Positions 535 through 64,000 of a stretch of 64,000 bases of DNA are shown here, piece after piece. The position numbers and the translations under genes are program-made. The notes below the pieces were generated by a model. The model was not told the origin of the DNA and did not search any database. It worked only from the letters and a program-made list of their open reading frames with translations. Source of the DNA: Schmidtea polychroa (taxonomy: Eukaryota); assembly GCA_044892525.1 (NCBI GenBank), contig CM097885.1:9426001-9490000 (forward strand), given 5' to 3'. Position 1 is the first letter of the stretch. The number at the start of each line of letters is the position of its first letter.

Positions 535-3500
535 CAGGCCCGTACCGTCGGGGGGGGCCCAGGAGGGCCCGGTCCCCCCAAATAAAAAAACGGACATGAA
601 TAAAAAATGATGGTTTTACTTCAAGGTGAAAATGAAATAAACAATTACATTTATTCATGTACCATAAATGATCTAATAAGCACTATATAATGGGCCGAAT
701 CCTAAAGAAACCTTTTAATTAAAGTCGGAGCATCGTTTTAAATTTCACTAAATAAAAACTTTCTCGTATCCTAATTAACTGAGACTTAATCATTTTCTTA
801 AGTTAAAAAAGATTCTCTAACAAAACTTTCAATGGGTGGTGAGGTCTTTTAAATTAGTAAAGCAATGTTACATGTCGCGAAATTTCTCAGATGTGTACGG
901 AATTCAAACCCCGGAGTGTGTCTATAAATTTCCCCAAATCGTTAAAGGGTAGTGCTGGACAATTAAAATATTAGCCTCACAGGATTGCTTAACACCAAAT
1001 GTTAACAGCGCAACAATTGTCGATACCAAACGTTGTCGACAACAGTTGCTCTGATGTGAATCACTGCATTACATTCAATATGTTTGATAAAAGAAAAATT
1101 GCTATCGTGCACACATGCATTGACATGGGTGTGCATGAGTTGCACATGTAGAGGTTTATGTAGTATGGACGGGGGTAGGATGTTCCATCTATCTGCCTCA
1201 CTGGAAGAGACTGGCATGTGAAGTCGGTGGCGTGGGTAGGGTGCGTGCTGTCTGCTTTCCTGCCTCACAGGCAGTAACAACGCATGGAGGCATGATTGAG
1301 TGTCAGAGCACGGAGTGGGTGCATTGTGGTCTTTATACGATGGTAGAGAGATAGGCCAATGAGAGCACATCACATGTCATTATACTCAACTCACTCCTAT
1401 GGCAGAGTGACATGTTAATTGATCATATTTTGTAACATTATTTTCATCGTATTAGAACATGTCGACACAAAAGAGTATCATGAATTTCTTCCAAGTCATT
1501 CCAAAGAATTCTGTGACATCAGTCACTTCATCCAGTGATAGTATCTCTGCTACTATGTCCTCAACTTGTGCTAGTCCTTCATCTGTACCTGCTATTTCAT
1601 GTATCCGTGACAGTGCAGTGATGTCCTCATCTTCTTGTGCACCTGCTAAGACTCTGTCATCTACTAAATGTGATCTGGGTGAAGAAATGCCACGCCAGCC
1701 AACTGATGTAAATTTCCCAAAGACTTCGTTTGGTTCAAGGGAACGCTCATTTTTGTCTGTGTGGTATAATGGAAGACCATATTTGGAGTACTCTATTGAG
1801 AAAGATGCAGTCTTCTGCTTTTGCTGTAGAAAATTTTCATTGCCCGGCTCTGCTGGCGAAAGTGCTTTCAGAACAGGAGGATTCCGAAATTGGAAATCGG
1901 CTCTAGAAAAAGGTTTTCAAAAGCATGAATCTTCTGCTGGCCACATCCATGCCATGGAACGCTGGAAAGAGAAACAGCTGACATGTGAAAAAGGTGAGGA
2001 AGTTTGCACTTTGATTAATGAAACACAGCTGAAGAACAACCGTTATTATGTCAACGAAATCGTTGACGTTGTAAAGTTTCTTGTGACAAATGAATTAGCC
2101 TTTCGTGGTGACAGTTTCAGTAGAGACGATATTGATGAGGATGATAAGCTTCCGTGTGGTCTATTTTTACGTCTCTTCGAATACACTGTTAAGAAAAATC
2201 CTGAGCTGGCTCGTACCATTAAAACGATTCCCAAAATTGCCACGTACACATCACCTCGAATTCAAAATGAAATTATCGCGTTAATGGCATCAATAGTGCA
2301 AGAGTCAATTGTTAAGAAGTGCAAGTCTGCGGATGTTGAATATTTTACTCTGAAGGTGGATGGTACCAAAGATCGAACAGGGACTGAGAATGTGTCGATT
2401 GCCATAAGGTTTGTCTCAGCAGGACAACCTCAGGAGCACTTAATCTGCATTTCCCGAACAATTGCTCTCAATGCAGAGGCCTTCACAGATGTAATTTTGA
2501 CAACCTTGAAAGAGGCTCAGTTGGATCCTAAAAATATAATTTCCTAATGCTATGATGGAGCCGCTGTTATGTCTGGTCAGCATGGTGGGGTGCAGGCCTT
2601 GCTTCAGGAGCGTCTACAAATAGAAATTCCGTATGTCAATTGCTTCAACCACAAGTTGCATTTGGTTGTTGTGTGTGCCGTTTCTGAGTGCCAAAAACTG
2701 CGGGACTTCTTCGACATATGCAGAAACTTATACACATTTTTGTCATATCCTAAGGTTGCGGCCATATATCACAGCGATAAATTGACACGGCTCATGGAAC
2801 ATCGTTGGACAGGACACTTGCAGACGACTCAGGCAATAACAACTAATTATGATACAATTGTGAATTTGCTTGAGATGTGTTCTAGTAGACATTCTCACTT
2901 TTCAATTGATATTCAATTAGAAGCTACTGGACTCTTGCATCGAGTCAATGAAGTGGAGTTTCAGTTCATTGCACACATGGTGCTCTCATTGCTGACTATC
3001 CTTGAAACAGCCAACAATAGCTTGCAGGGTCAAGCAATGGACCTTTCTTCAGCATGTGATGTTATGGATGCCGTCATAGAGCGCATTCACAGCCTACGCA
3101 ATGAAGAGGAATTCCAAGTTCTTTTTGGGAAATTCGAAGGTCAAATGAATATGGAACAGACACCAAAAAGAAGAAGAACTCAGATGAACTCAAAATTAGA
3201 CAACTTCATTGTGTTCGGATCTGTGGGACAGCCAGAACACCAGGCCTTGCCTATCAGATGCGCATATCGCCAGATGTATTACGAAGTCGTTGATAGGACT
3301 CTGCAGGAACTAACAAAACGCTTCGGTGTCACCAACAGAAGCCTTTATAAGTCTCTTGCATGTTTGAAGACTGATCACGCAAACTTTTTGAATATTGAGG
3401 AGCTAAAGACTTTAGCGACACTGTGTGGCGTGGACCTAAGCGAAACCCAACATGAATTTGAAACTGCAAAGGTTTTCCTATTGAAGAGAGCCAGTACTGT

Positions 3501-4198
3501 GACAAACGTTCATCAGTTAGTGCAAGAACTGTACTCATACCGAGATGCTTTTCCATCTGTCTATCGTCTTGCAGCTTCTGCACTGACAATCGGTGCTTCA
3601 ACTGCCACATGTGAGGCGACTTTCAGTACTTTATCTCGTGTCTTAACTCCCTTTCGTACGTCGATGAGCCATTCTCGTAAAGCCAACCTTGTATTGCTCT
3701 CATTTGAAAGTGACATCAGTAATAACATCAAATCTGATGAGTTTCTTCGGCGGTTTCATGAAATGAAAAATCGTCGACTGCAGCTATTTTGAGTCATGTC
3801 GATATCTCACACACGTAATTTCTTTTTTCTGGATCTAGTTCCTGTGTAATTTCTATTGCACTCACCTTTAGTTTTCAAATCTGTGTGACTGTGTGTTCTG
3901 TCTTTGTATGTCCAATTGTCCGTCGTGCAAATACATGCAGCTATTTGTTTTTTGTGTTTGTTCCTAAAAAATGTGCGAAAATCATTTCCTATATACTAGT
4001 ATATACAATAATGTAACAAAATAATGCTCAGACAAAATGTCGATTTTGCTTTCCTTTTTTTTAAATTGAACATTTCGGAGTGCAAAGTGTGAGTAGTGAC
4101 TAGTCTGTTTTCATAAAATACTTAGTTTACACGAGAATTACTGGCCCCTTTAATGAGAGTCTGGGCCCCCCGTCAAAAGGTGTCACGGTACGGGGCTG
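535..4198 (+). mobile_element. Complete hAT DNA transposon (ZMYM1/TTF zinc-finger type)
   Basis: TIRs caggcccgtaccgt (535) and acggtacggggctg (ends 4198), 13/14 match. Perfect 8-bp TSD gttgttac at 527-534 and 4199-4206. Internal transposase; visibly more GC-rich than the flanks. Confidence 0.97.
1459..3792 (+). pseudogene. hAT transposase with a single in-frame nonsense codon
   Basis: ORFs 1459-2547 and 2569-3792 are in the same frame. TAA at 2545-2547 replaces the Q of the usual (Q)CYDGAAVMSG motif. Also has TTF zinc finger (FCFCCR..HESSAGH), DGTKD, CFNHKLHL, RW and CEATFS dimerisation motif. Confidence 0.93.
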
Positions 4199-38555: not shown

Positions 38556-39169
38556 AATAGTCGAGTTCTTAAGCGTTGGAAACGGAATGGATTGACCAAC
38601 ATTAGTGAGCGTTTTTGGAAGTGTAACAGTAAAAAATTAAGTATTGCAGATTAGATCTTTAAATTCTATAATTAATATTCAAAGTTCCCAGTCTACAGGG
38701 ATTTTGAATGTATTTAAGTAATTTCACTTGTATATTTAATATTTGGGATGATGTTTTTTGTAACAGTTTTTAGTAAAAATCAATTTTTAATTTTTAAATT
38801 AATTTTTATAAAAATTGTAGTATGAGAATGTTAACAATTTTTGTGAGTTTTTAAAATTAAAATAAGTTTTATATGATTAAAAAAATGTTTTTCAAAATTT
38901 TATTTAAATATTTTTTTTGATACAATTTGATTACGATTATTAGTTGTTAATTTATTTGAATATTATTATTTTCATTTAGTTATGAATGATATGATTCTTA
39001 GCCTGAAGAAGAATGTTAAACGGTCGCAATATATAGCAATGTTATATTTTATTATACTTAGTTGGCGATTTTCTATTATAAAAATATTGCCTTCTTTCTT
39101 TGATTATAATAATAATAATAAATGCTATGTTAATGGAAAAGAAATCAGTGGTGAAAATTGAAAAAAGTT

Positions 39170-39705
39170 CTTAATAATAAATAATAGTAATAAATAATAA
39201 TAATAATAATAATCAATAATAATAATTAATAATAATAAATAATAATAATAATCAATAATAATAATTAATAATAATAATTAATAATAATAATTAATAATAA
39301 TAATTAATAATAATTAATAATAATAATTAATAATAATAATAATTAATAATAATAATTAACAATAATAATTAATAATAATAATCAATAATAATAATCAATA
39401 ATAATAATTAATAATAATAATCAATAATAATAATCAATAATAATAATTAATAATAATTAATAATAATAATTAATAATAATAATTAATAATAATAATCAAT
39501 AATAATAATAATCATTAATAATAATTAATAATAATAATCAATAATAATAATCATTAATAATAATTAATAATAATTAATAATAATAATTAATAATAATAAT
39601 TAATAATAATAAACAATATTAATAATCATTAATAATAATTAATAATAATAATTAATAATAATAATTAATAATAATAATCAATAATAATAATAACAATTAA
39701 TAATA
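39170..39705. repeat. Compound (TAA)n-derived minisatellite
   Basis: aataataat(t/c) variant array. Confidence 0.9.
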
Positions 39706-44220: not shown

Positions 44221-47200
44221 ATGAATATAAATATATACAGTCGAATTATAGCAAATAATGAAACAGATTCTTGTATACAACTGTCTAATGAATCAAATCA
44301 AACTGTAATAAATTGCTCCGATGGTTCTCAGTTGAAGTAATAATAACATAAATGGATTGTATTTATTTAATGGTCGAAGGGTAGCAAAATGTTTCACTGA
44401 ATTTGATGACAATCAAACAATATACGAGAACTGTATAGAAAATCTTATAAATGCAACATTGAATGGACTTAATTCGGCTTTCTTCTTGTTTGGTGAGCCA
44501 GAATACGATAAATCATATATTATAAACGGGAGTAATTCTAATAGAGGAATATTTTACATAGCTGTTTATTATTTATTTAATAAATTGAATGCAGGTAAAT
44601 AATTTATTATTTATTAGTTAGTCTACTTTTTGTTATTATTATCATAATTATTGATGAAAAAATGACCAAATCAAAAATTAGGAGGTGGGGTTGAGTCATT
44701 GATATTCTGAAGAGTACATAATAAAAGAGTTGAAAAACATGTAAGGGGTAATGTGAAATGTACATTCCTTCAATGGTTTTTATCCAATCACAGAGGAGAA
44801 GGGGTATGTCTCTATCAATGGTTTATCCAATCACAGAGGAGAAGGGGTATGCCCCTTTCAATGGTTTATCCAATCACAGAGGTGAAGAAGTATGCCCCTT
44901 TCAATGGTTTATCCAATCACAGAGGAGAAGGGGTATGCCCCTTTCAATGGTTTATCCAATCACAGAGGTGAAGAAGTATGCCCCTTTCAATGGTTTATCC
45001 AATCACAGAGGAGAAGGGATATGCCCCTTTCAATGGTTTATCCAATCACAGAGGTGAAGAAGTATGCCCCTTTCAATGGTTTATCCAATCACAGAGGAGA
45101 AGGGATATGCCCCTTTCAATGGTTTATCCAATCACAGAGGTGAAGAAGTATGCCCCTTTCAATGGTTTATCCAATCACAGAGGTGAAGAAGTATGCCCCT
45201 TTCAATGGTTTATCCAATCACAGAGGTGAAGAAGTATGCCCCTTTCAATGGTTTATCCAATCACAGAGGAGAAAGGGTAATAAGCCTCCTTCAATGGTTT
45301 ATTTAATTTACATGTTTCTCGCGTCAATTTTATCTTTTGTGCAACTCACTTAGTTTGTGAAAATATGACAAGTGGCTTACTGAATGGAGGTAGTGGAAGG
45401 CATATATTCTCGAGTGCCGGAGCAAGAGATGCCAAAATGGACACCTAATGTTTATTGAAAAATTTGCACCAGTTTTAGGAGAGGGGTTCCTTTTAATACA
45501 TTTATAATTTGGGATAATGTTAGAGAAATGTAAAAAATGATTTCCTTACTATATGACATTTACCATTATCTTTTAAATCTTAATAAAGAGTATGAAATAT
45601 TTTGAACGACTCCTAGACGCTTCGGGAGTTATTTTTATTTTCTCACATTCATAATTCTTTTTTTTTAATGTTTATTTTCATAAATCAACAGATAGAAACA
45701 TGAAGTCCTCATTCAAAGTGCAATTCTCTATCCTAAATGTCGCAGAAAATGTTATTTTTGATCTAACAAAATTGGATAATTCTTCAATTCATTTTGATAA
45801 AGTCAAATATTCAGAGACTGAAGGTCTTATAATTGAGGTTTGCTTTTCCACTATTAAATTTTATTGCATTATTTAACTATTAAAGGGTAACATCCCAATC
45901 AAGACCATATATAAATATGTTGGGGTTATAAAATTTTTAAAATTAAAATTGAATTATATTTGTAATTAAAGGAATGAGAGAAGGGTAAGACTGGTCAAGG
46001 AGAGAATTGACAATGCGAAGAAATACAATGGGTAGAAAGGCTCGAGAAGGTGCATCAGTATATGGGAAAGGCACAAAAAAGGTGAATTGAGAAAAATCGA
46101 TAAAAGATTCATAAATTCGAATTAAAGTCTGAAAATTGGTCATGTTGATAATAGATATCGAGGAATAACATGGTATTAACGGAATTTTCAGAAAGTGCTA
46201 GTAAGAGTGCGAAAAAGTGCGTAAAAGAGGAAAAACAAGAAAATTAAATTAATTAATTAATTAATTAATTAGCTAGTAGAAAGAAATCCCGAGTTGGGTA
46301 AACAAAGAGAAAAGTAAACAGATGGAAGATTTGGTCCCATTATCGTGTCACAGTGATTAATGGGAGAAGAACAAGAAAAAGATAGTGCGGGCTATTAATT
46401 ATCTTTGTTCGTTGGACCATTCTGGGTGACAGCCGAAATATGTCAGCAGATATGTTGAGTCAAATGTCAAGAGAGAGATTGGCTCGGCAATAACAACTTA
46501 TCATCCCGATTTCGAAGAGTATATAAGGAACCGACATTTAGCCTCATCTAGGAGTTAGAAGAAAACGAGGGTAGGCAAAGGAAAAAGACGAATTGGCAGT
46601 TTAGGGAAAAAGAAAAAATAGAACCAAGAGATACGTAAAAAGTGGAAAGGAATTAAACCGAAGGGAAAAGTTGGTCAAAAGAAGCTAGGGAATAAAAAGG
46701 TGAATATTATCTTTTGTCAAGGCATCAACACCGAGCGGAGAATCGGTCAAACTCTTAAAACTTTGGTTATTGATTATTTAATATCGAGAGAAATTTGTGA
46801 TTTAAATATACGTTGGGTAGTTATTGTTTTGATATTTACAATTAAAGGGACACGTGGAGTCAGAGGTTACCGACTTGAATTAATAAAACCCAACAATTAT
46901 ATTACCACATTATGGGACAAGGTATATAATATGTAGAAATTTATACATCCACTAATGTCATATCCACCATATCAAAGTAAATGTATCAATATCAAATATC
47001 AATATCAACAATATCAATATCTATTGAAAAAGCTATTGAAAATCAGTAAATATATCGATGTTTTTAATATATTTACTGATTTATAGTCTTCAAACTTTTT
47101 TTAATAAATTCAATGGAAAAAAATCAGTGGTGAAATTGGAAAAAAATTCTTATAATAATATCAATATCAACAATATTTTTTATTGCTGATTGTTTTTCAT

Positions 47201-48302: not shown

Positions 48303-51300
48303 TTAAAAAACTAAATGATAACCTTTTGCTGCCAAGTATGTATTCAATGAAAAATATTTTGATTATTAGACATTCCTTTACAATAAAAATATAATAATAG
48401 CTATCAAATTGTTGCTTATATAAACCATTAGAAAGATTATGAAATTCTAGAATTGAAAAACATTTAAAATTATTTAATAAATTCACATACAAATATTTTA
48501 AATTTAACCCATTTGATAATTAATTCAAATTTTAATTTAATTAATATTTTAAACAATTACCGTATATTTCGGCGTATAAGGCGACCGTCAGATAAGACGA
48601 GGTACAAAATTAGAGCAAATTTTTATGATTTATCATATATCGGTTGTAGAGGTATAAATACAACTAGTATAAATACAACTACCTGTACTGTAATACTTTC
48701 TTTTATATCGGTTGTATAAGACGACCCACAATTTTCAAGGGTGATTTTTTGACTTTAAGGGTCGTCTTATACGCCGAAATATACGGTAAATGATAATTTA
48801 ATCCTTTTGCGGCAAATGATATATTTAATACAAATTAAAAAAATTTCGACTATATGATAGCCCTTGTCGATTTCCTAGAATTTAGTTTCTTCTATTTTCA
48901 ATATACTTTTTGTTCTTCTCTATTTTCTTTTTATTTCTCTTATTTTCCTTTAACCAATGAAGCGCAGTGAGACCCGGTCAATTAGATAAGGTAGGGAATT
49001 CACCTGAGCGCCAATCTTGGACAAACAAATTAATTTAAAAATCTTCAAAATGTATGCCTAAGATTCTCGTGTAGAGAATTAATTGCAATAATCATAACGG
49101 TAGATAATTGCCCTTTCAGAACAAGTATAAAAAGGGAACTCAACAACAGACAAGTTGCAGTTCGTCGAAGACACAAGAAGGAAGTTTGGCGGTAGAGACA
49201 ACCAGCAATCGGAGGACGAAATCCAGTATTTGAAAGTAAAGTTTAATTCTCGTACCTGAAAAGATGATTGCCTCTTTGGTTGTCTACCTTTGCAAGCGAT
49301 ATTTATTCAGAGAGAAAACTGCAAATCTAGTGACGAATTTTAATTTTGATTGAAGTAAGAAAAAAGTTATTCGGTGTTGGGTTTCGATTCATTTGTTTAA
49401 ATAAGAACACGAGGAGTCAGAGTAAACCGCCTTGAAAAATAATGACCCAACAGAAGTTAAGAACTAAGAACTACATAAAAATATGTTATCTTTTTAATTG
49501 TTATTTTAACATTAAATTTTATGTCATTGGTAAATTATGAAGTTAATTCGTGTCTATGTGCGCTTTTTACTTTCTTTGTATTTGGGTTGTGTGCGCACAC
49601 AGACGCGGTAAATTGTCGCATTATTAGTTTATCTCGCGTCTGTGTGCGCTTTTTGCTTTGTTGATTTGGATTGTGTGCGCACACAGACGCGGAAAAGTGA
49701 GAAGATTATGTTTTGTTGGATCGATCTAAGAGTTTTTGATGAATCGAATTTTGGTTGTGCTTTGCTCATTCGAATTGTGAGTTGTTTTCAAATGGGTTTT
49801 AAAAAGGAGTTTTGGATTGTATTGAGTTTTGGATGGATGTTTTCGAATTGTGAGTTGTTTTCGAATGGTTTCCTGTTGGGAAAATATATGATTTTTGATA
49901 TTATGCGTAATAACTTAATGGAAAATAATGATGATGCCTTGAATGCTCTTCATGTTATTCGTTACAACTCAAGGGAAAATAATAATGATGCCTTGAATGC
50001 CGTTCATATTATTTGTTATAACTCAATGGAAAATAATGATGATGCCTTGAATGCAGGTCATATTATGCGTTATAACTTAATGGAAAATAATAATGATGCC
50101 TTGAATGCCGTTCATATTATTCGTTGTAACTCAATGGAAAATAATGATGATGCCTTGAATGTTTCTCATATTATTCGTCATGCTTCTGTTGGAAATACTG
50201 CAAACGAAACTGATGGTTCCTTTTTTATGACTCCAAGAGATCCTGATAACTTTAATAGTGTTTTTGGCCAACTAATATCAAATTTATTTGGTGGATTGCT
50301 GCCGCAGGATTTAGATCCGATTCGTCAGATTACATGTTTTCAGATCAAAGTTTTGACAAGTGTGTAACGAGTATTAAGAATCAATTTGAACAAAGTGGTC
50401 CTCCACTAGCAAATAAGGCAGATATTGAAAGATTACCAGTCAAGAAAATCACCGCAGCTAATGATACAGGTTTCAGTTGTCTGTCAGATTATGAAGTGGC
50501 CGATGAAGTGTACGAGTTGCTCCGCCGAGAAACGTGGACGATTACTAAGACGATACTTAGAATCAAGCTTCAAAGGACGATTAAACAGTCATATTAAATC
50601 TTGTCTAAAACATTTCTTTATTGGCCTTTACTTCATCGAAATCAACTCCTTTCGCCAAATCACTTTCAATCGATACAATTGCAAGATCAGGAAGCCTTGA
50701 TTGTCACATAGTAGATGGCAAATAGTTCTTTATAAACCTTTACTTTGAAAAACTCGACTCACATGAAGTCACAGACATACAGCAATATTTTCGGTGTCAA
50801 TTGTTTTGTGAAGACTAAATCCTGCTTCCAACGTTTTCTAATTTTCAAGGCAATGTAAGTGCTCTTCAGATGTCTCATGATTATGCACTTTCGGGTTCAG
50901 TTGCCACCACTTGTGAAACCCAGTCACAATTTTGGGTTTTGAGTCGGTAGCATTAACGTTACCGGCAAAGAGTCGGCAGTAAAAACAATATAATTCCTCA
51001 CTGACTGGAAAGTAAATCATCCATGTTCCTAACGCTTTCTCGCCATTTGGCATGACCTTGTAAAAACCCTCTTTTGATAGCTGGCGAACATTTCTTTTTG
51101 CTCTTAGATCTTGCCTTGTCACAATCTTTGTTCTGGAGAGAAGCACTTCCTCTTTTGATGATTACAACTCGCAAATCATATTATACACGCAGAACTATAA
51201 CACGTTATAACTTATAATTAACTGAACAGAGATATTTTTATATTTCAATAATATAATAAATTTCTATCGAAGGGCTGAAACAATGTATAAGAATAATTTC

Positions 51301-52291: not shown

Positions 52292-53437
52292 GTAAAATCT
52301 TATTAAATTTCTAGCATATTAACTATTAAAATATTTCTCTAAAACACAAACGGTCCTTTGAGGTTTTTCTAATCAATTTAAATGTATTTGTATATAATAA
52401 TAGTAGGATATGCCACCTCCAGGACACTATCCCCCTTCCTAGCGGGGAAAAATATTAAGCTAAAAAAATTTTTTTTAAAGTTAAAAATATGTAGGTAAAG
52501 TCAAATATTTTGAATTTTCACTATTTTTCCATGGTTTCTAGCGAAATTTTTCTACGTTTTTATGAAATTGGACTGATTTTATCGATTTTTTCACAAATAT
52601 TTCTAAGTTTTTAGGTAGGTCAACTTACTTTAAACATGTGTCACCTCCAGGACAATATATAAGATATGTAGGTCAACTCAAAATTAAGTAGGTCAAGTTA
52701 AAATTAAGTTGGCCAAGTTGAAATTAAGTAGTTCAGGTTAAAAATATGTAGTTCAAGTCAAATTTTTTGAATTTTCACTATTTTCTCATGGTTTTTCGTG
52801 AAATATTTTAAGTTTTTATGTAGATCAAGTTACTTTAAACATGTGTCACTTCCAGGATACTATATAAAATAAGTAGGTCACAACTATATTGTTTTTTAAA
52901 GAAGTAGGTCAGGACTATATAGTTTTTAAATAAGTAGGTCAAGTTTAAAATAAGTAGGTAGTATAATTATTATATAATTATATATAGTATAATTATAGTA
53001 TATAGAATATAGTATAATTATTATACAAGTCTATAGTTTAATTAAACATGTCATACACTCTAAATGGGTGTAGGAAAAGTGACTGTGTGCGTGTATGTGT
53101 GTAAAGGGCAATAGTTAAGAATAAAATTATAAATTCCTAATGAAACACATATAAATTAGATAAAATTTATCAAAATTATATGTTTTAAGGTTAAAAGTGT
53201 GTGTGTGCCTGTACAGAAAAATATTAATAAAGAGCAGTAATTAAGAGCATCACTCGAAAGTCTACATGGTAGTCATGCACTTGGATTGCACATGCCTTTG
53301 TTAATCATGCACATCTATTGCACAAGTCCTTGTTTAACACGCGCGTTTATGCTTAATGATAAAATAAATACATATTCAAGATTTATTGATTAGTACATGT
53401 ACAGTCTACATCTAACACCTTTTCATTATATTCTCAA

Positions 53438-53724
53438 CTACGTGATCAACGCAATCGTTAAAATCATTACACACATGTTGTTCGATTTGTGTAGATTCAT
53501 CTCAGATAAACCTTCTTCAGTAACTTGAGAATCTTCATGTATTCTTGAATCATCATCATCAGAAGAAACCAATTCTTGTTCTAATGTATCTGCAACTGTA
53601 ACTATATCTCTAACTTTTATACCGGTTAACTCCTCTAATTGTTGAAACAAAAAGTTTATTAAATATTCTAAATAAAATTAGTGTACATTAAACACTTATA
53701 TGTTATACCTTTTTCTGACGACAT
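53438..53724 (-). CDS. Small acidic orphan protein, probably spliced
   Basis: MSSEK|gtataa..tttag|EYLINFLFQQLEELTGIKVRDIV...; a roughly 41-bp intron joins in frame. Confidence 0.45.
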
Positions 53725-54033: not shown

Positions 54034-54480
54034 TTAAAATATTTGTGAAATTCGCGCAGTTTTTATTTTCCAAATAGGAGAAAACACATCATTCTGATCG
54101 ACTTTATAGCCTTGAATTGTAATTGTTAGAAACCAGCTTTCCTGTTCCTTAAAGCCTATTTCTGCAAAGGCGTCATAATATCTTGCATATCGCGCATTGA
54201 AGAAAGCGTTTTGATTGCATTTTAGATTTGAATCTATCTTATTGAAAACTTCATCTATAGCTTTAATATCTATCATTAAGAGAGTTCCAGCTAGAAATTG
54301 GAATTGAGTTTGGTCCAGTTTGACTGATTTTACCAATCTTCTTTAAAGAAATAAATTTTGTAATTGTGAAACATCTGAACCGGTTGCACGATTTCTTCAA
54401 CAGCTTTTACTTTTTCGGAGTTTGATACTTTCTTTGTAATTTTGATTAATGACAAAATAAGTTTGAACAATCCTTTTATA
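54034..54480 (-). pseudogene. Orphan element gene, frameshifted upstream of ORF 54034-54336
   Basis: 100-aa protein-like ORF; upstream open frame ends in a different phase near 54335. Confidence 0.45.
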
Positions 54481-54795: not shown

Positions 54796-55185
54796 CTATT
54801 CAACATATCTTTGGTAGCGGAAATGACAACAACTGCATCCAATAAAGCAGGGGTATTCTGGTTCCACTTCCTTCATAGTTCTTCCGATCTTCACATCCCA
54901 GAGAAGGGTATTAATAATATCAAATATCCAGATTCTGGTTTCGTTGTAGATTAAGTCTGGAATTATTGCAGCATCTCGATCTTTCAGGATAGCATACATT
55001 TGTGGATAATAGAAATGTAATCTTTCAAGTATTATTGCCTGATATTCATCTGTAAATAATATTATAAATCCAAGTAAAAATAAAATTTAAATTTATCGTA
55101 ATGTTCCATTTCTTTCATAGCTGTTATAGCAGAGCTTTGAATATTGTACATTTTCAAAAACTGTTAATAAATGAAGAAACATCAT
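54796..55185 (-). CDS. Orphan element gene with C-terminal Cys cluster (PCFIGCSCCH)
   Basis: Open frame from acceptor tttacag near 55050 to the stop at 54796. The upstream putative exon has a non-GT donor (tacg|ataaat), so the gene may be damaged. Confidence 0.45.
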
Positions 55186-55278: not shown

Positions 55279-55670
55279 TTAATTAAGTGATAATAAAAAA
55301 TCTAAAAATTCTTTTCCTTTAATTATTGATTTTATTTCAGATATGATATTATCAACTATACATGTGTAATCAATATTTTTAATTCCAACAATTACTATCT
55401 TACCACTAGCGAATATATTGACACACATAGGGTTATTTTTTGTATATCTCAAAGCTGAAAATAATTCTGGTTCGTAAACGCATGGTTTTACAAGCAAAAC
55501 CCATATCAGAAGTTACTGTTATCGATTGTATTTCTAAATCATAAACATTATAATCACTAGCTATGATTATTTCCTTACACTCCATAATTCTACATTTACC
55601 AGTTTTGAAATAAATTATGGGATATGCAAAATATTCATTCTTTTTATACTCGGTGCCTTTAACAATGTAT
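55279..55670 (-). pseudogene. Minimal intronless TATA-box-binding-protein (TBP)-like gene, frameshifted near 55497
   Basis: Repeat 1 end PIIYFKTGKCRIMECK; repeat 2 LEIQSITVTSDMGF / CVYEPELFSALRYTKNNPMCVNIFASGKIVIVGIK, compared with TBP YEPELFPGLIYRM..P..VLLIFVSGK.V.TGAK. Confidence 0.85.
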
Positions 55671-56696
55671 TAAAACCTTAATTTTCACTTGACCTACTTA
55701 TTTAAAAACTATATAGTCGTGACCTACATCTTTTTTTAATTAAACAATATAGTAGGTAGTTAGTGGCTTACGGCAGCAATAGGGGGGGGGGTAAAAAATG
55801 TTGCAAACTTTTGATTGCATAACTTTTTCCGTAGACATTTTTTGATTACATAATTGTTGCCGTAATGCCCAATGTTTTCTGGGATTTTAAATACAAATTT
55901 TTTTTTTTTTTTTTTTCAATAAACAAGCCAAGGATAAATATTATTTGGGTGGGTCTCCTTGGTCCTGAGAATTTCAATAGAAAAAGGTAGTCTTCAATAA
56001 AAAAGCATGGATTTTTCACACTATAGTGAGGGGATCTTCTTGGTCATGAGAATTTCAATAGAAAAGGTGGTTTACATTAAAAAAACGCATAGTAAATTTT
56101 TAAAATAAAGCAAATTATGGGTCTAAAATTTAAAAATAAAGTAAATGATGGGTCTAAAAATTTAAGTAAATCAAGGTTCAGATTTATTTTTGAAATAAAG
56201 TAAATTATGGTCTAAATAAGTAAATTATGGGCTAAGATTTTTCAATTAAAGTAAATAATGGTTCTAAAAAATTAAATTAAAGTAAATAATGGTCCAAATA
56301 TTTTAAATTACAGTAAATAATGGTTCTAAAAATTAAATTACAGTAAATAATGGTCAAAAATTTTAAAATTAAAGTAAATTATGGTTCTAAAAATTAAATT
56401 ACAGTAAATAATGGTCAAAAATTTTAAAATTAAAGTAAATTATGGTTCTAAAAATTAAATTAAAGTTAATTAAGGTCAAAAATTTTAAAATTAAAGTAAT
56501 AATTTTTAAATAAGTAAATTAAAGTAATGTAATAAGTAAATTAAAGTAAGATTTTTAAATTTATTAACAAAAATAGAAGGTGTTTGAGAATTGAAATTTT
56601 TTAATGGAAATTTTAATGAATTATTTTTTAAGTAATTTTTAATAGAAATTTTTATGAATAATTTTCAATGGTAATTTTTAATGGAAATTTTAATGA

Positions 56697-56746
<50 letters not shown>

Positions 56747-56933
56747 TAATATTAATAATATATCAACCAAATACTATACAACACATAAAAAATTAACTAA
56801 ACACATAAAAATAACTAGACACATAACAAAACATATAAACATTAACTAAACACATAAAAATGAACTAGACACATAACAAACATAAAAATTTACCAAATAA
56901 CAAATGTAAAGATATAAAATTTATTCAATAAAA

Positions 56934-59900
56934 TTAGTCCTCATCGGACAAAATAACGTCATCGATATCGATGTCATCTTCTCCAAAATCTTCATTTAAT
57001 TCTTCCTCATCTTCTCCATCATTTTCTCCAACATTTTCTGAAACATTTTCTGCAACAATTTCTCCAACATTTTCTCCAATATTTAATTCACTTAATCTTA
57101 CATGCCCATATGCAAGACTAGTATTTTTCCCCACCCAAACCCTTTTGTCATCTTTGTTAGTTAGTGCTATTTTTGTGTTTTTAATTGTAAAAATTTGATG
57201 ATTTTTGCTTGTTATTTTAGTCTGAGGAACCGAAAAAATCTGGTTAGTGTTATAACAATCCAGGTATGACTGATGTTTTATGTCACTACCTTTCAATGTT
57301 ACACCTTTAGCCTTTTTTGTTTCCTCATCACTCAACAAGCTATAACATTTAGGTCTAAGAAAAACCCACTCCTTATATTTAAGACCTTTATTCTCGTCTT
57401 TGAACTTTCCAATGACTGAATCAAGGTTCTTACTATATAAGGAATGACAACTATTGTAATTGGAAGTATCCAATAAATTATCTCGAACCATTGCAGGTAA
57501 AAGAACCTCAAGTTTGCAGTTAATGACTTCGAGGAAAAAAGAATCTGTATCACCTGCAACGATATTAATTTTACAATTAAACTCATTGCGAATTGATTCC
57601 AGATCCTTATATTGCAATTCATACATTCTAAGTTTAGATAGATCAAGTACAGATTGACCAATGTAACTCGGTCTATCTAAACATATAGAATCGGAATTCA
57701 ATAGTGCTGCAATTAAATTATCTGCTATTTTAATAGATTTTTTAAAAGTCGGTTTTGACGAATATTTAACTAATTTACCGGCAGTTGTACAAAGACGAAG
57801 ATTCATTCTTCTCTTTAAATTTTCAACTGTTTTGCCGTATAAACTATTATTTAGCAATTTATAATAATTTTTATCTAAGCTATTTACGCTTTTTGATCTT
57901 AATTCGGTATTTGTATCTATATATTTTTTAAAAATTGGTGATTGCTTAAATCTTACACCCCTATTTACACGTGTTACTTTAACACCAAGTTCCAAATATA
58001 ATTTTAATAATCTCCAATGAATAACATAATTAGATTTTGGAAGATGAGTTAATAATAATTTTTCAACCTTAGACCCAGCAGGTTTCATTTTTTCAGCAGC
58101 TACAGGGAAATCATCCAACTTATCATGAAGCTCAGAAGGAATTACAAGATCAACTTCAAGTGTGTATCCATAAGACAAAGATTCAAGATTTAAATTCCTA
58201 CATTCATCCATTATTTTATCAAATCCATCAAGAACCCAACAAAATTCGCCACAAGGTAATGATTGACTTAAAGCCCAGCCATAAAGATTATTAATATCTA
58301 TATATAGTAACTCAGTGTTCTCGTCGGTTTTTACGTAATGCTTATTCACAAAAGTAAGACCGCCTCTTATTCCACCCTCATAAAAGCTAAACATTTCGTT
58401 TTCAGTTATGAGTTCAATTGGTTCATTTAAAGACATTAATGCAGAAGACCAAGACATGCCTGGAATTCCGAAATAATTCAATGGTTCCAATCTATTGTGA
58501 GCAATGGATTTCAACCGAAACTGATGAAAGAAATCAGCCAAAAGAAAACAATCAAGTTTTAGGTAGATCATCATATAATCTAATAAAGTTACGCAATTAG
58601 TTTCTACCCAAATCTCCTGAGCTTTTTCATACTCAAGCTCAGTGACACCCTCCCAGATTGGTGGTAATTCATAAGTAGTTTGGAGAATATCTAAAAAAGT
58701 GGCGAAATTATAAGGGAAGATTCCTTTTTCACTTACTATGGTGCCAGAAAAAGCAGAATTAGTAAAAGGCAAAGAATTCAAAGTTTTGACTGCTTTAGCC
58801 AAAGAATCATTGACAAATTGATACGAATCAATGAATCTTAGGCTAATTTTACCTAAATGAGCAATCAAAGATATAAATTTTTCCGTAGTTATTGGGATGC
58901 ACCCTAAATTCCAATTTTTAAATTTATTTAATCCATATTTAAGTATATGGTGCATATCGTATCCCTTCAAGTTGTGAAATACGATAGGCAAAATTTTATT
59001 TATTTTTCTATTTACGTTACATGTGCTACAAGCTGCACCCAAGTATTTCCCCATTAAATGATCGTGATCTCTAACAGGATCCACGATAGATTTCAAACAA
59101 AGATAACAAACCGTTGAATTAATGAATTGTTGTTGCTCAATTTTCGTTAATTTAATCATTGGTTTCCTACCCATTTTATAATAAAAAGGAAGAACCTTAT
59201 TTAATGCTATATCCTCTATAGCACTTAAAAAACTCTCGACGCAATCTAAACCTATGAACTGCTGATAAGATTTAGATCCGTCAAAGTTATTTACTAGTAA
59301 AAGACCAGCAGATATTGGCATGTGTCGCTGAAAATGATCATTATCAGAAGGTAAAATAACCTCAAAATCGGCATAAACTACAAAAGGAGGAGTTACTGTT
59401 TTCGACCAGTCAGTAAACTGTAAGAATTTATTTTGAGGGAAAGTATAAAGAGTTGTTCCTAATTGATTACGTTTGCATAATATTTCATGTTTTTCTAGTG
59501 CGTTTCTATTATTAAACCCATTCAAACACCGATGGGACCATAATGAACGTATGCGTGTAGGACAAGTAGTGTTGATACCACAATTCAATAACCTATTTAA
59601 ATTGCTTATAGCAACGTAATGGAAATTGTTCCCTTTATTTAATAATAGTAAATTAATTACAGTTCCATTTAAAACTTTGGAACGATGTATAATGTCTAAA
59701 TGTGGGTGTTTTAAAACGTAATTATCTATTAATTGTTTGTTATTGTCATAAGAAAAAACGTTAATTATTAAACCAGGATTTTTGGCCTCGAATTTTCTAA
59801 TATCTTTTAATTTCATGGGTAAGTCCAATGGATTATATATTAATTCAGATAAATTATAACTGGATGTCCTATTTCTAGCATAACTACTAACCTCATCATA

Positions 59901-60713
59901 TTTTAAAATAGCTAAAATGCTATATAAAAAACATGAATCATCGGTGTTTTTTATATTAATTAAACAATATTTATTTTTTAGATAAGTAGGTAGTTCAATG
60001 AAACTCCTACCACTTAATCTACTTAGCCTACTTATCTTTGTTATGGTGAAGTGAATTTCTGTTATTTTTTTTATGATCCAGCTACTTCCTAACTCTGTGA
60101 TATTACTTATTTTCTCGTTTAGTTCCCTAATGCCTTCGTCAAAAAATGATGCAGTTAAAGGCTTTGCATAATTTGAGATATTATTAACCTTTATTTCCCC
60201 GTCTTTTTCAAATTCGATTGTTATTCCGAATTGAATTTTGACGGAGCCTAATTCGTTAATAATATCTCGTAATTTTTTTATTAGTTGTTCAGGAAATATT
60301 ATTTCTTTTATATTTAAGTCGCTTGTATTTAAGCTTAATATTTGATGGGTACCTCTTAGATCTTTTTGTATTATTGGAACATTTCCACCTATTTGTATTA
60401 TATTTAATCCATCCCAAGAGTCAAGGGAAATATTATCTAATCCGACCTGGGATTCAACAACCAATCCATCATGGGATTCGACAACCAATCCATCATTGGA
60501 TTCCACAAAAGGCAATCCGACCTGGGATTCAAAAGAAGAAGTATCTAATTTAATTTTTTTATTTTTATTATTTTTTTCTATAGTTGAGGGTCTTTTAAAA
60601 ACACTATCTTTTTTAAAATTAAACCTATCTAAATGATTTTTATGTTTATTATAAAAAACGCTATATGTTACGGGGTCACTAGTCTTACATACGGGACATA
60701 TTTTAAAACACAT
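56934..60713 (-). CDS. polB: Protein-primed family B DNA polymerase (Polinton/Maverick-type) with endonuclease-VII-like zinc insert
   Basis: Intact 1259 aa. ExoI VVYADFE, CYLC..VRDHDH..G...GAACSTCN, ExoII FHNLKGYD, FIDSYQF, KGIFPY, ExoIII YLKLD, GIRGG, YIDINNLYG, KLLNNSLYGK, GDTDS, RPKCY, KAKGV. Confidence 0.96.
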   Translation of the reverse strand: MCFKICPVCKTSDPVTYSVFYNKHKNHLDRFNFKKDSVFKRPSTIEKNNKNKKIKLDTSSFESQVGLPFVESNDGLVVESHDGLVVESQVGLDNISLDSWDGLNIIQIGGNVPIIQKDLRGTHQILSLNTSDLNIKEIIFPEQLIKKLRDIINELGSVKIQFGITIEFEKDGEIKVNNISNYAKPLTASFFDEGIRELNEKISNITELGSSWIIKKITEIHFTITKISRLSRLSGRSFIELPTYLKNKYCLINIKNTDDSCFLYSILAILKYDEVSSYARNRTSSYNLSELIYNPLDLPMKLKDIRKFEAKNPGLIINVFSYDNNKQLIDNYVLKHPHLDIIHRSKVLNGTVINLLLLNKGNNFHYVAISNLNRLLNCGINTTCPTRIRSLWSHRCLNGFNNRNALEKHEILCKRNQLGTTLYTFPQNKFLQFTDWSKTVTPPFVVYADFEVILPSDNDHFQRHMPISAGLLLVNNFDGSKSYQQFIGLDCVESFLSAIEDIALNKVLPFYYKMGRKPMIKLTKIEQQQFINSTVCYLCLKSIVDPVRDHDHLMGKYLGAACSTCNVNRKINKILPIVFHNLKGYDMHHILKYGLNKFKNWNLGCIPITTEKFISLIAHLGKISLRFIDSYQFVNDSLAKAVKTLNSLPFTNSAFSGTIVSEKGIFPYNFATFLDILQTTYELPPIWEGVTELEYEKAQEIWVETNCVTLLDYMMIYLKLDCFLLADFFHQFRLKSIAHNRLEPLNYFGIPGMSWSSALMSLNEPIELITENEMFSFYEGGIRGGLTFVNKHYVKTDENTELLYIDINNLYGWALSQSLPCGEFCWVLDGFDKIMDECRNLNLESLSYGYTLEVDLVIPSELHDKLDDFPVAAEKMKPAGSKVEKLLLTHLPKSNYVIHWRLLKLYLELGVKVTRVNRGVRFKQSPIFKKYIDTNTELRSKSVNSLDKNYYKLLNNSLYGKTVENLKRRMNLRLCTTAGKLVKYSSKPTFKKSIKIADNLIAALLNSDSICLDRPSYIGQSVLDLSKLRMYELQYKDLESIRNEFNCKINIVAGDTDSFFLEVINCKLEVLLPAMVRDNLLDTSNYNSCHSLYSKNLDSVIGKFKDENKGLKYKEWVFLRPKCYSLLSDEETKKAKGVTLKGSDIKHQSYLDCYNTNQIFSVPQTKITSKNHQIFTIKNTKIALTNKDDKRVWVGKNTSLAYGHVRLSELNIGENVGEIVAENVSENVGENDGEDEEELNEDFGEDDIDIDDVILSDED

Positions 60714-61152
60714 TTTGACGCTAAAGTTGACTTATTTAACATTTTCATAATAATTTAATAAAAATAATGTGATGAACCCACAAAGAAATATCATTTTTCA
60801 TCAAATTGCAAAACAGTAATAACGTTTTCATAAAATTGTAACAAAGTAATAACATATTTCAGATAAATTTTCAACAGTTGTAAAATATTTAAGCAAATTG
60901 TAACAAGATTAGAAAATATTACAACAAAGTAGTAACATATTTCAGAAAATTTCAACAAATTTGTAAAATATTTATCAAATTGTAACTAAAATAATAAAAA
61001 TATTGCAACAAAGTAATAAAATAATAATGGTAATTAAGACAAATCAATACATTATTTCGAAGACGGACAACAAATTAAAAAGAATATTGTAACTAAAATA
61101 ATAAAAATATTGCAACAAAGTAATAAAATAATACAACATTTTAAACTCTAGA

Positions 61153-61565
61153 TCAATCCATTTTATAGAAAATTAAATTTTATCTATATAATATATGAAT
61201 AAATATCCAAGGAAATTACGTTAACGTATAATAAATACAAATTTATCGTAAAAACATGTGTGTATTACACACAAAACAAGATACATAATTTCTAATCAAT
61301 CCATTTTATAGAAAATTAAATTTTATCTATATATTATATGAATAAAATCCTAAGAAAATTACGTTAACTGTATGAAAAATACAAATTTATCATAAAAACA
61401 TGTGTGTATTACACACAACATACGAGACATAATGTTTAATCAAGCTATTTTATAGAAAATTAAATTTTATCTATATAATATATGAATAAAAATCCAAGAA
61501 AATTACGTTAACCGCGCGAAAAACTACAAATTTATTGTAAAAACATGTGTGCATTACACACAAAG
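61153..61565. repeat. Three tandem units of about 141-146 bp upstream of polB
   Basis: ttttatagaaaattaaattttatctatat...attacgttaac...aaaaacatgtgtg(t/c)attacacacaa, three times. Confidence 0.9.
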
Positions 61566-61683
61566 CATCAAACTGAAATTGTAATTGCGCCATGTTGTAG
61601 AGAATTAAATTCTGCCTATACATTGTTACACTTAAATCTCGATCAGACATGTGAAAAGAGACATAAAAGAGAAAGAACAGTAG

Positions 61684-62229
61684 AGTAGTATGATTGGGGC
61701 CATCCAGGCCATGTCCCCTCCAGACCACATATACCCCCTCCCCCCCCCCCCGGGAAAAAAATTTTTTTTTTAAAATAAAAGGTCAAGGTCATTTTTTAAT
61801 TTAATTTTTTGTTTTAATTAAGTGATCATTTAATTTTTCAAGGTCATATTTTAAAATTTAAATGTACAGAGTTCCCGCCAACAAATATTATTAAACGATA
61901 CCTCATCTTAAAGCTCGGTCTAAGACCTTTCGATTGATCCATAGAAGGTATCATCATCATTAATATTAACAAAGTTATTAACATTTAACCAAAAATCATT
62001 TTCAAGGTCATATAATTATTAGTGATCCAGCGGTGACCTGGTTTTCGTTTGCCCCAAAGTTATCGTTCCCATTATCCGAATTTATTATTTGATAGCTTAT
62101 TTTGAAGCTTAGTGCAAGATCTATCTACTGATGTATAAATATTATTATTAACATTATTTTACACACGGGGGGGAGAGGGTATATGTGGCCTGGCGGTGAC
62201 CTGGTCTGGATGGCCCCAATCATACTACT
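61684..62229. mobile_element. Module C: 546-bp non-coding mini-element with AGTAGT...ACTACT termini
   Basis: agtagtatgattggggccatccag at 61684 and ctggatggccccaatcatactact ending at 62229 (24/24 match), extending as an imperfect TIR of about 65 bp; internal aaggtca repeats. Confidence 0.82.
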
Positions 62230-62714
62230 CTTTTATGTCTCTTTTCACATGTCTGATCGAGATTTAAGTGTAACAATGTATAGGCAGAATTTAATTCTCT
62301 ACAACATGGCGCAATTACAATTTCAGTTTGATGCTTTGTGTGTAATGCACACATGTTTTTACAATAAATTTGTAGTTTTTCGCGCGGTTAACGTAATTTT
62401 CTTGGATTTTTATTCATATATTATATAGATAAAATTTAATTTTCTATAAAATAGCTTGATTAAACATTATGTCTAGTATGTTGTGTGTAATACACACATG
62501 TTTTTATGATAAATTTGTATTTTTCATACAGTTAACGTAATTTTCTTAGGATTTTATTCATATAATATATAGATAAAATTTAATTTTCTATAAAATGGAT
62601 TGATTAGAAATTATGTATCTTGTTTTGTGTGTAATACACACATGTTTTTACGATAAATTTGTATTTATTATACGTTAACGTAATTTCCTTGGATATTTAT
62701 TCATATATTATATA
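62230..62714 (+). repeat. Inverted copy of 61185-61669
   Basis: Near-identical reverse complement. Confidence 0.95.
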
Positions 62715-62721
62715 TTAATAT

Positions 62722-64000
62722 ATTAATATAAAAAACACCGATGATTCATGTTTTTTATATAGCATTTTAGCTATTTTAAAATATGATGAGGTTAGTAGTT
62801 ATGCTAGAAATAGGACATCCAGTTATAATTTATCTGAATTAATATATAATCCATTGGACTTACCCATGAAATTAAAAGATATTAGAAAATTCGAGGCCAA
62901 AAATCCTGGTTTAATAATTAACGTTTTTTCTTATGACAATAACAAACAATTAATAGATAATTACGTTTTAAAACACCCACATTTAGACATTATACATCGT
63001 TCCAAAGTTTTAAATGGAACTGTAATTAATTTACTATTATTAAATAAAGGGAACAATTTCCATTACGTTGCTATAAGCAATTTAAATAGGTTATTGAATT
63101 GTGGTATCAACACTACTTGTCCTACACGCATACGTTCATTATGGTCCCATCGGTGTTTGAATGGGTTTAATAATAGAAACGCACTAGAAAAACATGAAAT
63201 ATTATGCAAACGTAATCAATTAGGAACAACTCTTTATACTTTCCCTCAAAATAAATTCTTACAGTTTACTGACTGGTCGAAAACAGTAACTCCTCCTTTT
63301 GTAGTTTATGCCGATTTTGAGGTTATTTTACCTTCTGATAATGATCATTTTCAGCGACACATGCCAATATCTGCTGGTCTTTTACTAGTAAATAACTTTG
63401 ACGGATCTAAATCTTATCAGCAGTTCATAGGTTTAGATTGCGTCGAGAGTTTTTTAAGTGCTATAGAGGATATAGCATTAAATAAGGTTCTTCCTTTTTA
63501 TTATAAAATGGGTAGGAAACCAATGATTAAATTAACGAAAATTGAGCAACAACAATTCATTAATTCAACGGTTTGTTATCTTTGTTTGAAATCTATCGTG
63601 GATCCTGTTAGAGATCACGATCATTTTATGGGGAAATACTTGGGTGCAGCTTGTAGCACATGTAACGTAAATAGAAAAATAAATAAAATTTTGCCTATCG
63701 TATTTCACAACTTGAAGGGATACGATATGCACCATATACTTAAATTTGGATTAAATAAATTTAAAAATTGGAATTTAGGGTGCATCCCAATAACTACGGA
63801 AAAATTTATATCTTTGATTGCTCATTTAGGTAAAATTAGCCTAAGATTCATTGATTCGTATCAATTTGTCAATGATTCTTTGGCTAAAGCAGTCAAAACT
63901 TTGAATTCTTTGCCTTTTACTAATTCTGCTTTTTCTGGCACCATAGTAAGTGAAAAAGGAATCTTCCCTTATAATTTCGCCACTTCTTTAGATATTCTCC
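62722..64000 (+). pseudogene. polB: Second, inverted polB copy lacking its 5' end (corresponds to 59960 downward; runs off the window)
   Basis: Reverse complement of about 58682-59960, starting at INIKNTDDSCFLYS. Substitutions seen: HLMG>HFMG, KYG>KFG, ATFL>ATSL. Confidence 0.93.

Follow-up and report, generated by a model that had tools for sequence, protein, structure and literature searches.

The locus examined lies in a window of 64,000 nucleotides (the whole stretch of DNA analysed) from the AT-rich, 781-Mb genome of Schmidtea polychroa, and contains a gene related to the TATA-box-binding protein (TBP), in which the first-pass annotation had noticed four diverged motifs of a two-repeat TBP. 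All four motifs were located on the minus strand, split over two frames (55433-55669 and 55279-55512), and the product, with an X placed at the break, passes the curated cut-off of the Pfam TBP profile (E 3.7e-9; 36.7 bits against 22.9). The proposed relationship is real; an intact copy of the same family reaches 55.9 bits with PF00352 (cut-off 22.9), the C-lobe alone scoring. The window gene is also intronless and frameshifted, as had been described: a short deletion near 55490 breaks the frame, and with it the C-terminal lobe has lost its first helix. When aligned with other family copies, TBP homology ends at approximately 55625, and the adjoining 55625-55675 is an inverted fragment of another Polinton ORF, C3; the first ~35 codons of the gene are therefore missing. 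The window copy is a dead, 5′-truncated, frameshifted gene inside an internally deleted element (Table 1). This particular copy is of no functional interest, and its value lies in the TBP family to which it belongs.

Table 1. Features of the TBP-bearing element A′ and the nested element B (window positions)
Feature	Position	Strand	Remarks
Target-site duplication TATAAT, left of A′	52393..52398	.	Repeated after L075:3334
Left terminal inverted repeat of A′, AGTAG-type start	52399..52960	+	77-90% inverted match to L075:2972-3343
C10 remnant (small acidic protein)	53438..53677	-	Match to family gene C10
C5, broken copy	54034..54460	-	Beta-rich; SSB/OB-like by inspection alone, no database match
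C6 main exon, truncated (five helices, Cys cluster)	54796..55086	-	No clear fold match
TBP-like gene, broken	55279..55625	-	5′ ~35 codons gone; frame-shifting deletion near 55490
C3 scrap, inverted, at deletion junction; not TBP	55625..55675	-	86-90% match to L031/L033/L036/L038
Right terminal repeat of A′, inner part	55676..55750	-	Resumes beyond element B at L075:2955-3334
Target-site duplication CAATAT of element B	55745..55750	.	Repeated after L075:2954
Element B, left arm; B is a palindromic Polinton derivative with pPolB only, nested in A′	55751..61740	+	
pPolB of element B	56934..60731	-	Open over 1,265 codons between stops; differs from the TBP-family polymerase
Centre of element B, non-coding, between arms	61741..62165	.	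Bounds approximate
Right arm of element B, internally deleted	62166..64000	-	Continues to L075:2954

The host element, A′, is a ~3.7-kb internally deleted TBP-bearing Polinton that extends from ~52399 to L075:3334, contains C10, C5, C6 and TBP, and is flanked by a 6-bp duplication, TATAAT, whose AT-richness makes it weaker evidence. An intact, co-oriented pPolB had been reported 1.3 kb from the TBP-like gene, and an open frame of 1,265 codons indeed lies on the same strand 1.26 kb away, but the two genes do not share one inverted-repeat-bounded module as had been supposed: they belong to two nested elements, each with its own 6-bp duplication. Element B spans 55751 to L075:2954, with CAATAT on both flanks, within the right terminal repeat of A′; because B was inserted into this repeat, the 1.3-kb linkage of TBP and pPolB is an accident of nesting. 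A search with 55600-57300 returned 55 matches, of which only the window itself extends into the TBP part, the long matches starting at the terminus of B (55751; query 133-152) or deeper inside it. The possibility that TBP is a cargo of the adjoining pPolB element is ruled out by the nested insertion with its own duplication and by the absence of TBP profile matches from element B at 35 loci (0/35). These results show that an unrelated pPolB-only element was later inserted beside a dead TBP copy, and they illustrate that, in a genome rich in repeats, a gene may come to lie beside pPolB by an accident of nesting.

Element B is a giant palindrome, with pPolB in both arms at 13 of the 13 centres examined and arms that are 98-100% identical; no other core gene (integrase, ATPase or capsid) was found in it at these centres. 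A second pPolB piece lies in its right arm (62719-63999, plus strand), and the 40 best matches to its pPolB are ~100% identical. This young, high-copy Polinton derivative, unusual in form, with one intact pPolB to each arm and a variable non-coding centre, presumably borrows its missing functions from elsewhere. Within the window, a deletion in the right arm (62680-62720) joins 144-bp repeats straight to mid-pPolB, and part of the centre (61847-62131) resembles the left-end region of TBP-family elements at 75-83% (L046, L047, L049), which may be a sign of terminal sequence that is common to both or was captured. Elsewhere the window holds a hAT-type transposase with one stop inside (1456-3792; DUF4371 and Dimer_Tnp_hAT matches) and three tandem arrays (39030-39670, 44693-45365 and 49898-50200) with units of 13, 43 and 54 bp, respectively.

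A fixed TBP gene of a Polinton lineage

A genome search with the TBP yielded 2,321 first-look candidates, 40 of which were scored. An open ORF of ~153 codons was identified by a strict pattern in 26 of 29 other genomic copies, and one copy missed by this pattern (L005) is nevertheless open. An exact 33-base pattern of the TBP stirrup occurs 1,094 times in the genome, its reversed control not at all; this copy number is a lower bound, because ATPase starts number 2,212. The gene order of the carrier, termed family A, was read from 10-kb stretches around 20 copies, with the pVI and capsid labels inferred. A Bcl-2-like gene (C14) at the left end faces a series of genes of opposite orientation, C10, C5, C6 and TBP; beyond TBP follow the ATPase, C3, the integrase, a 360-aa ORF (C360), a pVI-like gene, the putative capsid gene, the protease and pPolB. 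Among the copies listed, TBP is head-to-head with the ATPase, and in the reverse test the same arrangement was found at 18 of 18 loci chosen by their ATPase alone (from 150 scored of 3,573 candidates).

The identity of the carrier is indicated by profile matches of its ATPase (Pox_A32, E 1.7e-7), its adenain-type protease (Peptidase_C5, E 2.3e-6) and its integrase (rve, E 2.6e-7, just under the cut-off, together with chromo). PF03175, the pPolB profile, matches at E 9.5e-8 on a relative in L041 and at 1.5e-21 on L132, and the family A pPolB is ~55-67% identical to that of element B over long aligned blocks. The putative capsid is a 407-aa ORF (C9) without a Pfam match, labelled from its size, its place before the protease and its conservation; C14 (L049:2402-2731) matches Pfam at E 0.004, below the cut-off. 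Terminal inverted repeats and a 6-bp target duplication were shown on the deleted window copy A′. The earlier proposal that TBP is a cargo of a pPolB-encoding Polinton holds in that the lineage encodes pPolB, although not in the element to which the adjoining pPolB belongs, and the carrier is not the small pPolB element that had been envisaged: it is a complete Polinton that encodes ATPase, rve integrase, protease, putative capsid and a pPolB of its own. Together, the data show that a large Polinton/Maverick lineage has a short TBP among its fixed genes.

The family TBPs divide into at least four subfamilies, which share ~52-62% identity with L008 and show dN/dS of ~0.2-0.4 when compared with one another, values that indicate purifying selection. 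TBP and ATPase have been reassorted between subfamilies, as seen in two pairs of copies (L101 and L206, TBP dS 0.03 and ATPase dS 0.30; L207 and L216, 0.26 and 1.2), and this discordance points to recombination at the head-to-head junction. C6 (L216:6060-6371 and relatives) is fast-evolving, with five helices and a Cys cluster. Its model (pLDDT 90.8) gave a best Z of 5.2, to unrelated helical proteins, and no BFVD match at E<=0.001, and thus lends no support to C6 as a mini-TFIIB; a word search found no C6 homologues, and C5 had no Atlas match. In a third Polinton family of this genome, distinguished by another ATPase (L224, L225, L240), no TBP occurs in the three stretches read; in L225, a PLA2-like domain is fused to the integrase. 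A poly(A) tail past C5 at an AATAAA/CA site (L215:7247), in run X3, which is RNA by guess, suggests that family A is transcribed somewhere; the two other tails in X3 follow A-rich runs without a signal and are likely the result of internal priming. Among four runs over L215:3850-7700, whose kinds are guessed or unknown, X1 and X6 alone extend over the TBP ORF.

Outside the genome, the search for TBP homologues gave 56, of which 55 have identities of 36-61%, and with the TBP profile 62 cluster representatives were retrieved at E<=1e-30. Of 26 metagenome contigs carrying the family, which are not all independent (L124 and L126 are near-identical, and several share a sample prefix), 10 also encode ATPase, integrase, capsid, protease or pPolB and 15 encode any family gene; the 11 lacking one are all <=3.0 kb. 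Polinton family genes were found at 0 of 56 weaker TBP loci, mostly of cellular or giant-virus type. The gene order around TBP varies among the metagenome carriers, and some of their ATPases are only ~40% identical. Deep TBP-bearing Polintons (L128, L129, L133) have additional genes of the PLA2-like, KilA-N and C2H2 zinc-finger types. In IMG/VR, the TBP alignment retrieved two giant-virus-type TBPs and nothing else, scans with the ATPase, capsid and integrase alignments found no TBP-less control Polinton, and the pPolB scan retrieved one distant viral contig, L241, without a clear TBP. Atlas matches of TBP fell below the recognition threshold (2100 against 2300), with uninformative taxa.

All Polinton TBPs fall into one clade in a tree of 76 rows (SH-aLRT 100), and this clade was recovered at 100/100 in a mixture-model tree of 40 of these rows; the window copy is placed inside it, beside L008. 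The outgroups comprised the host TBP, five host paralogue loci, cellular, archaeal and two giant-virus TBPs, with no TRF2 row, and the clade sits on a long stem that hides its donor. The canonical host TBP gene (L091) is intron-bearing. Five divergent host paralogue loci were also observed (L092, L093, L095, L096, L100), three of them intronless (L095, L096, L100), and no exon of the YEPELHP type, a TRF2-type motif, was found in the host. Given a clade separated at 100/100 from the host TBP and from both giant-virus TBPs, the family TBP is not a processed pseudogene of the host, the outcome that the first-pass annotation had named as refuting its proposal.

The TBP protein and the YATAAAC box

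The fold predicted for an intact natural copy (~153 aa; pLDDT 94.5) is a two-lobed saddle of the PF00352 type. It superimposes on an archaeal TBP with Z 12.6 and an rmsd of 2.5 Å over 141 of 153 residues and retrieves TBP with Foldseek at E 2e-9, the prediction itself possibly leaning on solved TBPs. The N-lobe helices H1/H2 are absent from the model: the H2 segment has 18 residues with 2 K/R, versus 33 residues with 8 K/R in the host TBP, and deeper Polinton TBPs (L128, L132, L133) keep the segment length with only 1-2 K/R. In an alignment of 109 rows, in which invariance is partly biased by the way the homologues were found, the equivalents of three intercalating phenylalanines, F116, F190 and F207, are present in 104, 108 and 108 rows, and the fourth, F99, is lost at a position that is variable (yeast numbering from Table 1 of PMC12529657, within the accessible part of that paper, mapped via alignment to the host TBP). 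The stirrup glutamates equivalent to E186 and E188 are kept in 97 and 107 rows, and the equivalents of N69 and P191 are also retained. On the DNA face, V122 is replaced by R in 104 rows, T124 by M in 108, L205 by N in 108 and N159 by S/T in all 109. The Polinton protein is a bona fide TBP fold that fails two canonical eukaryotic features, the four phenylalanines and the basic H2 of the N-lobe.

Residues I194, V203 and L205, all replaced in the Polinton TBP, are the TBPm3 altered-specificity sites, which contact the second base pair (PMC1636458). The N-lobe would be expected from these sites to read the downstream half of the box, where the Polinton box differs; the changes at T124, N159 and T215, which make up the central hydrogen-bond set, are just as compatible with weak DNA binding or none. 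In the part of PMC7221094 available, the C-lobe glutamates are assigned to TFIIB binding and the basic cluster of the N-lobe to TFIIA, TAF1, Brf, Mot1 and NC2.

The sequence TATAAAC is located 20-50 nt upstream of 2,033 of the 2,212 ATPase starts in the genome, although the spacers are dissimilar, and a strand-specific YATAAAC box lies ~25-42 nt before the ATPase, capsid and core genes. At the loci chosen by ATPase, YATAAAC was found upstream of ATPase in 16/18, C3 in 17/17, integrase in 15/15, the pVI-like gene in 12/14 and C10 in 12/13, and it stands 42 nt before the capsid ATG at all eight loci for which the start was found. It was not found upstream of TBP (0/18 genomic loci), C5 (0/16), C6 (0/12) or C14 (0/8), nor within 120 nt upstream of C360 (0/16) or the protease (0/14); the promoters of C5 and C14 combine CCAAT with TATAAA(A/T) instead. 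Across lineages, one of 18 TBP genes checked (in L131) has the box upstream.

In 11 metagenome contigs of TBP-bearing Polintons, TATAAAC occurs 45 times in the sense and never in the antisense orientation (expected, 13.4 and 8.7) and is the top non-microsatellite 7-mer, whereas TATAAAA, TATAAAT and TATAAAG are not enriched. YATAAAC is located 15-90 nt upstream of 30 of 67 metagenome ORFs (20 of them at 25-42 nt) against a background of 7.8%; the comparison sets gave 5/363 in control contigs and 0/29 in a TBP-less family, which is a single family with two copies, not end to end, and comes from a different lineage, so that lineage and TBP presence are confounded. One deep member, L133, prefers CATAAAC (14 sense, 0 antisense) over TATAAAC, and L241 has TATAAAC at 8/3 with CATAAAC at one ORF. 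The terminal Y-K-Q of the ATPase is spelt TAT AAA CAA in 9 of 9 sequences, including GC-richer ones in which these are minority codons, suggesting constraint at the DNA level. A role of TATAAAC as a poly(A) signal is disfavoured, since it is present before the ATPase at places with no gene further upstream on the same strand; the sole convincing poly(A) end seen uses AATAAA. In the box, C in the downstream half is an unfavourable base for a host-type TBP (PMC1636458), and TATAAACG retained 27% activity in a plant assay (PMC10005294). Host TBP can use boxes of the TATAAAC type at a reduced level, so that the viral protein need not be the reader of the box.

Proposed function and its alternatives

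These observations bear on the control of capsid and packaging genes in Polintons/Mavericks and on the question of a virus-like early/late cycle in these elements. On the evidence of residues and promoters, the Polinton TBP is probably a promoter-specificity factor for late genes that recruits host TFIIB and RNA polymerase II (Pol II), much as a herpesvirus mimic does. The intact TBP would be made early, from its box-less promoter, and would bind the YATAAAC box of its own element via a re-tuned concave face; the intact EPE stirrup would recruit host TFIIB and hence Pol II, and loss of the basic N-lobe helices would allow escape from control by TFIIA, TAF1, Mot1 and NC2. The packaging-ATPase, core, integrase and capsid genes would be switched on in this way as a late class, making the Polinton TBP a single-protein counterpart of the late TBP mimic in herpesviruses. 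We also lean, if only slightly, towards the fuller reading of an autonomous early-to-late switch in a widespread Polinton lineage, effected by one TBP of ~150 residues, with a new specificity for YATAAAC, use of host TFIIB and a shed regulator surface. An element-encoded TBP had been suggested to redirect or antagonise host transcription initiation; the box marks late-type genes of the element itself, which favours redirection.

That the protein acts instead as a decoy, titrating host TFIIB or the binders of the concave face and so damping host transcription, with host TBP reading YATAAAC, appears unlikely. A decoy would fit near-invariant stirrup glutamates beside a heavily altered DNA face, as well as the partial tolerance of host TBP for TATAAAC, but it leaves unexplained why polar residues are fixed at known specificity positions and why a non-canonical seventh base is kept on one strand even where the ATPases are ~40% identical; moreover, TBP without DNA binds TFIIB poorly. 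Retention of the TFIIB stirrup also speaks against a DNA-binding protein that does not activate, which might repress early host-type TATA promoters or bend the termini for replication or packaging, the box being an independent weak promoter for host TBP. The CCAAT and canonical TATAAA(A/T) promoters of C5 and C14 would be open to such a protein, and its lost TFIIA/TAF surface could block productive complexes; this role is nonetheless improbable, since the box marks a coherent virion/packaging set, avoids the TBP gene and is absent from the TBP-less family examined.

There is a slim chance that the protein activates with an unrecognised partner encoded by the element (a diverged TFIIB or an adaptor), as in giant viruses, rather than with host TFIIB. 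The five-helix protein C6 beside TBP is the feature that speaks for such a partner, but C6 was not seen next to TBP in the metagenome relatives, no TFIIB Pfam match was found among the family and metagenome ORFs scanned, and the glutamates that the Polinton TBPs keep tend to be lost where a viral TBP is accompanied by a viral TFIIB (PMC7221094, in its available part). A processed pseudogene or a recent capture of host TBP/TRF2, functionless in the element, has a negligible probability: the gene is intronless, the window copy broken, several host TBP paralogues (L095, L096, L100) intronless and TRF2 without a row in the tree, but the separate 100/100 clade is common to Polintons of other samples, and the copies, which number at least 1,094, occupy a fixed position and are under purifying selection.

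If the fuller reading of an autonomous switch is true, the Polinton TBP and its box would form a minimal natural orthogonal TBP-promoter pair, independent of the solutions of herpesviruses and giant viruses, and such 'transposons' would retain a real viral late programme, with the box predicting late transcript starts and the co-regulated gene set. The protein would be a natural altered-specificity TBP that keeps the TFIIB contact and drops the surface for TFIIA, TAF1, Mot1 and NC2, the reverse of giant-virus TBPs, and the family forms a graded series, from deep members that keep the N-lobe helices to derived ones that have lost them.

Comparison with known systems

The carrier resembles known Polintons, Mavericks and adintoviruses in its pPolB, rve and chromo integrase, A32-like ATPase, adenain protease, Bcl-2-like accessory gene, AGT-type termini and 6-bp duplications (PMC8502044 and bioRxiv 10.1101/697771, both in their accessible parts). 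In the accessible text of PMC8502044, the discussion of adintovirus genes omits TBP, whose sole mention there is a label in the legend of Fig. 5, and its supplement text gave no match for TBP. Beyond that label, no account of a Polinton TBP family or its box was found in the literature searched, which lies outside most subscription journals and Repbase, where prior annotation may exist.

Like cellular TBP (PF00352), the Polinton protein is a two-lobed saddle that keeps the equivalents of N69, F116, F190, P191, F207 and E186/E188; it differs in a core shorter by ~30 residues, in the loss of F99 and in its replaced DNA-face residues, and the sub-clade of the modelled copy lacks the H1/H2 of the cellular N-lobe. 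The TBPs of Nucleocytoviricota share with it an unconserved regulatory signature in the N-lobe, for which evasion of Mot1/BTAF1 has been proposed, and their structures match it in BFVD down to E 1e-7. Their TFIIB-binding glutamates, however, have diverged along with a co-evolving viral TFIIB (PMC7221094, as far as accessible), whereas Polinton TBPs keep both glutamates, and the two NCLDV TBPs in the trees fall outside the Polinton clade; from the ORFs scanned, the Polinton TBP does not appear to belong among the TBP-TFIIB pairs of giant viruses.

The closest parallel to the proposed working is provided by the TBP mimics of beta- and gammaherpesviruses, KSHV ORF24 (available part of PMC12529657), EBV BcRF1 and HCMV UL87. 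KSHV ORF24 likewise has a TBP fold, serves a nuclear DNA virus without its own polymerase and is paired with a non-canonical late TATA variant (PMC12529657); both it and the Polinton TBP change V122, T124 and L205, and a fold search gave a weak match between EBV BcRF1 and the Polinton TBP (E 8e-3). ORF24, however, is a multidomain protein of 752 aa that binds Pol II directly, reads TATT and works with other viral activators, and it is stated to be incompatible with TFIIB binding (PMC12529657), whereas the Polinton TBP keeps the TFIIB stirrup. Unlike ORF24, BcRF1 and UL87, the Polinton protein, at ~153 aa, consists of the TBP core alone, with neither an N-terminal Pol II-binding domain nor a C-terminal DNA-binding domain; compared with ORF24, it has lost F99 and the N-lobe helices, and its pairing with YATAAAC is seen as a sequence correlate. 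The Polinton TBP would resemble a herpesvirus late TBP mimic in its working and is not a member of that family.
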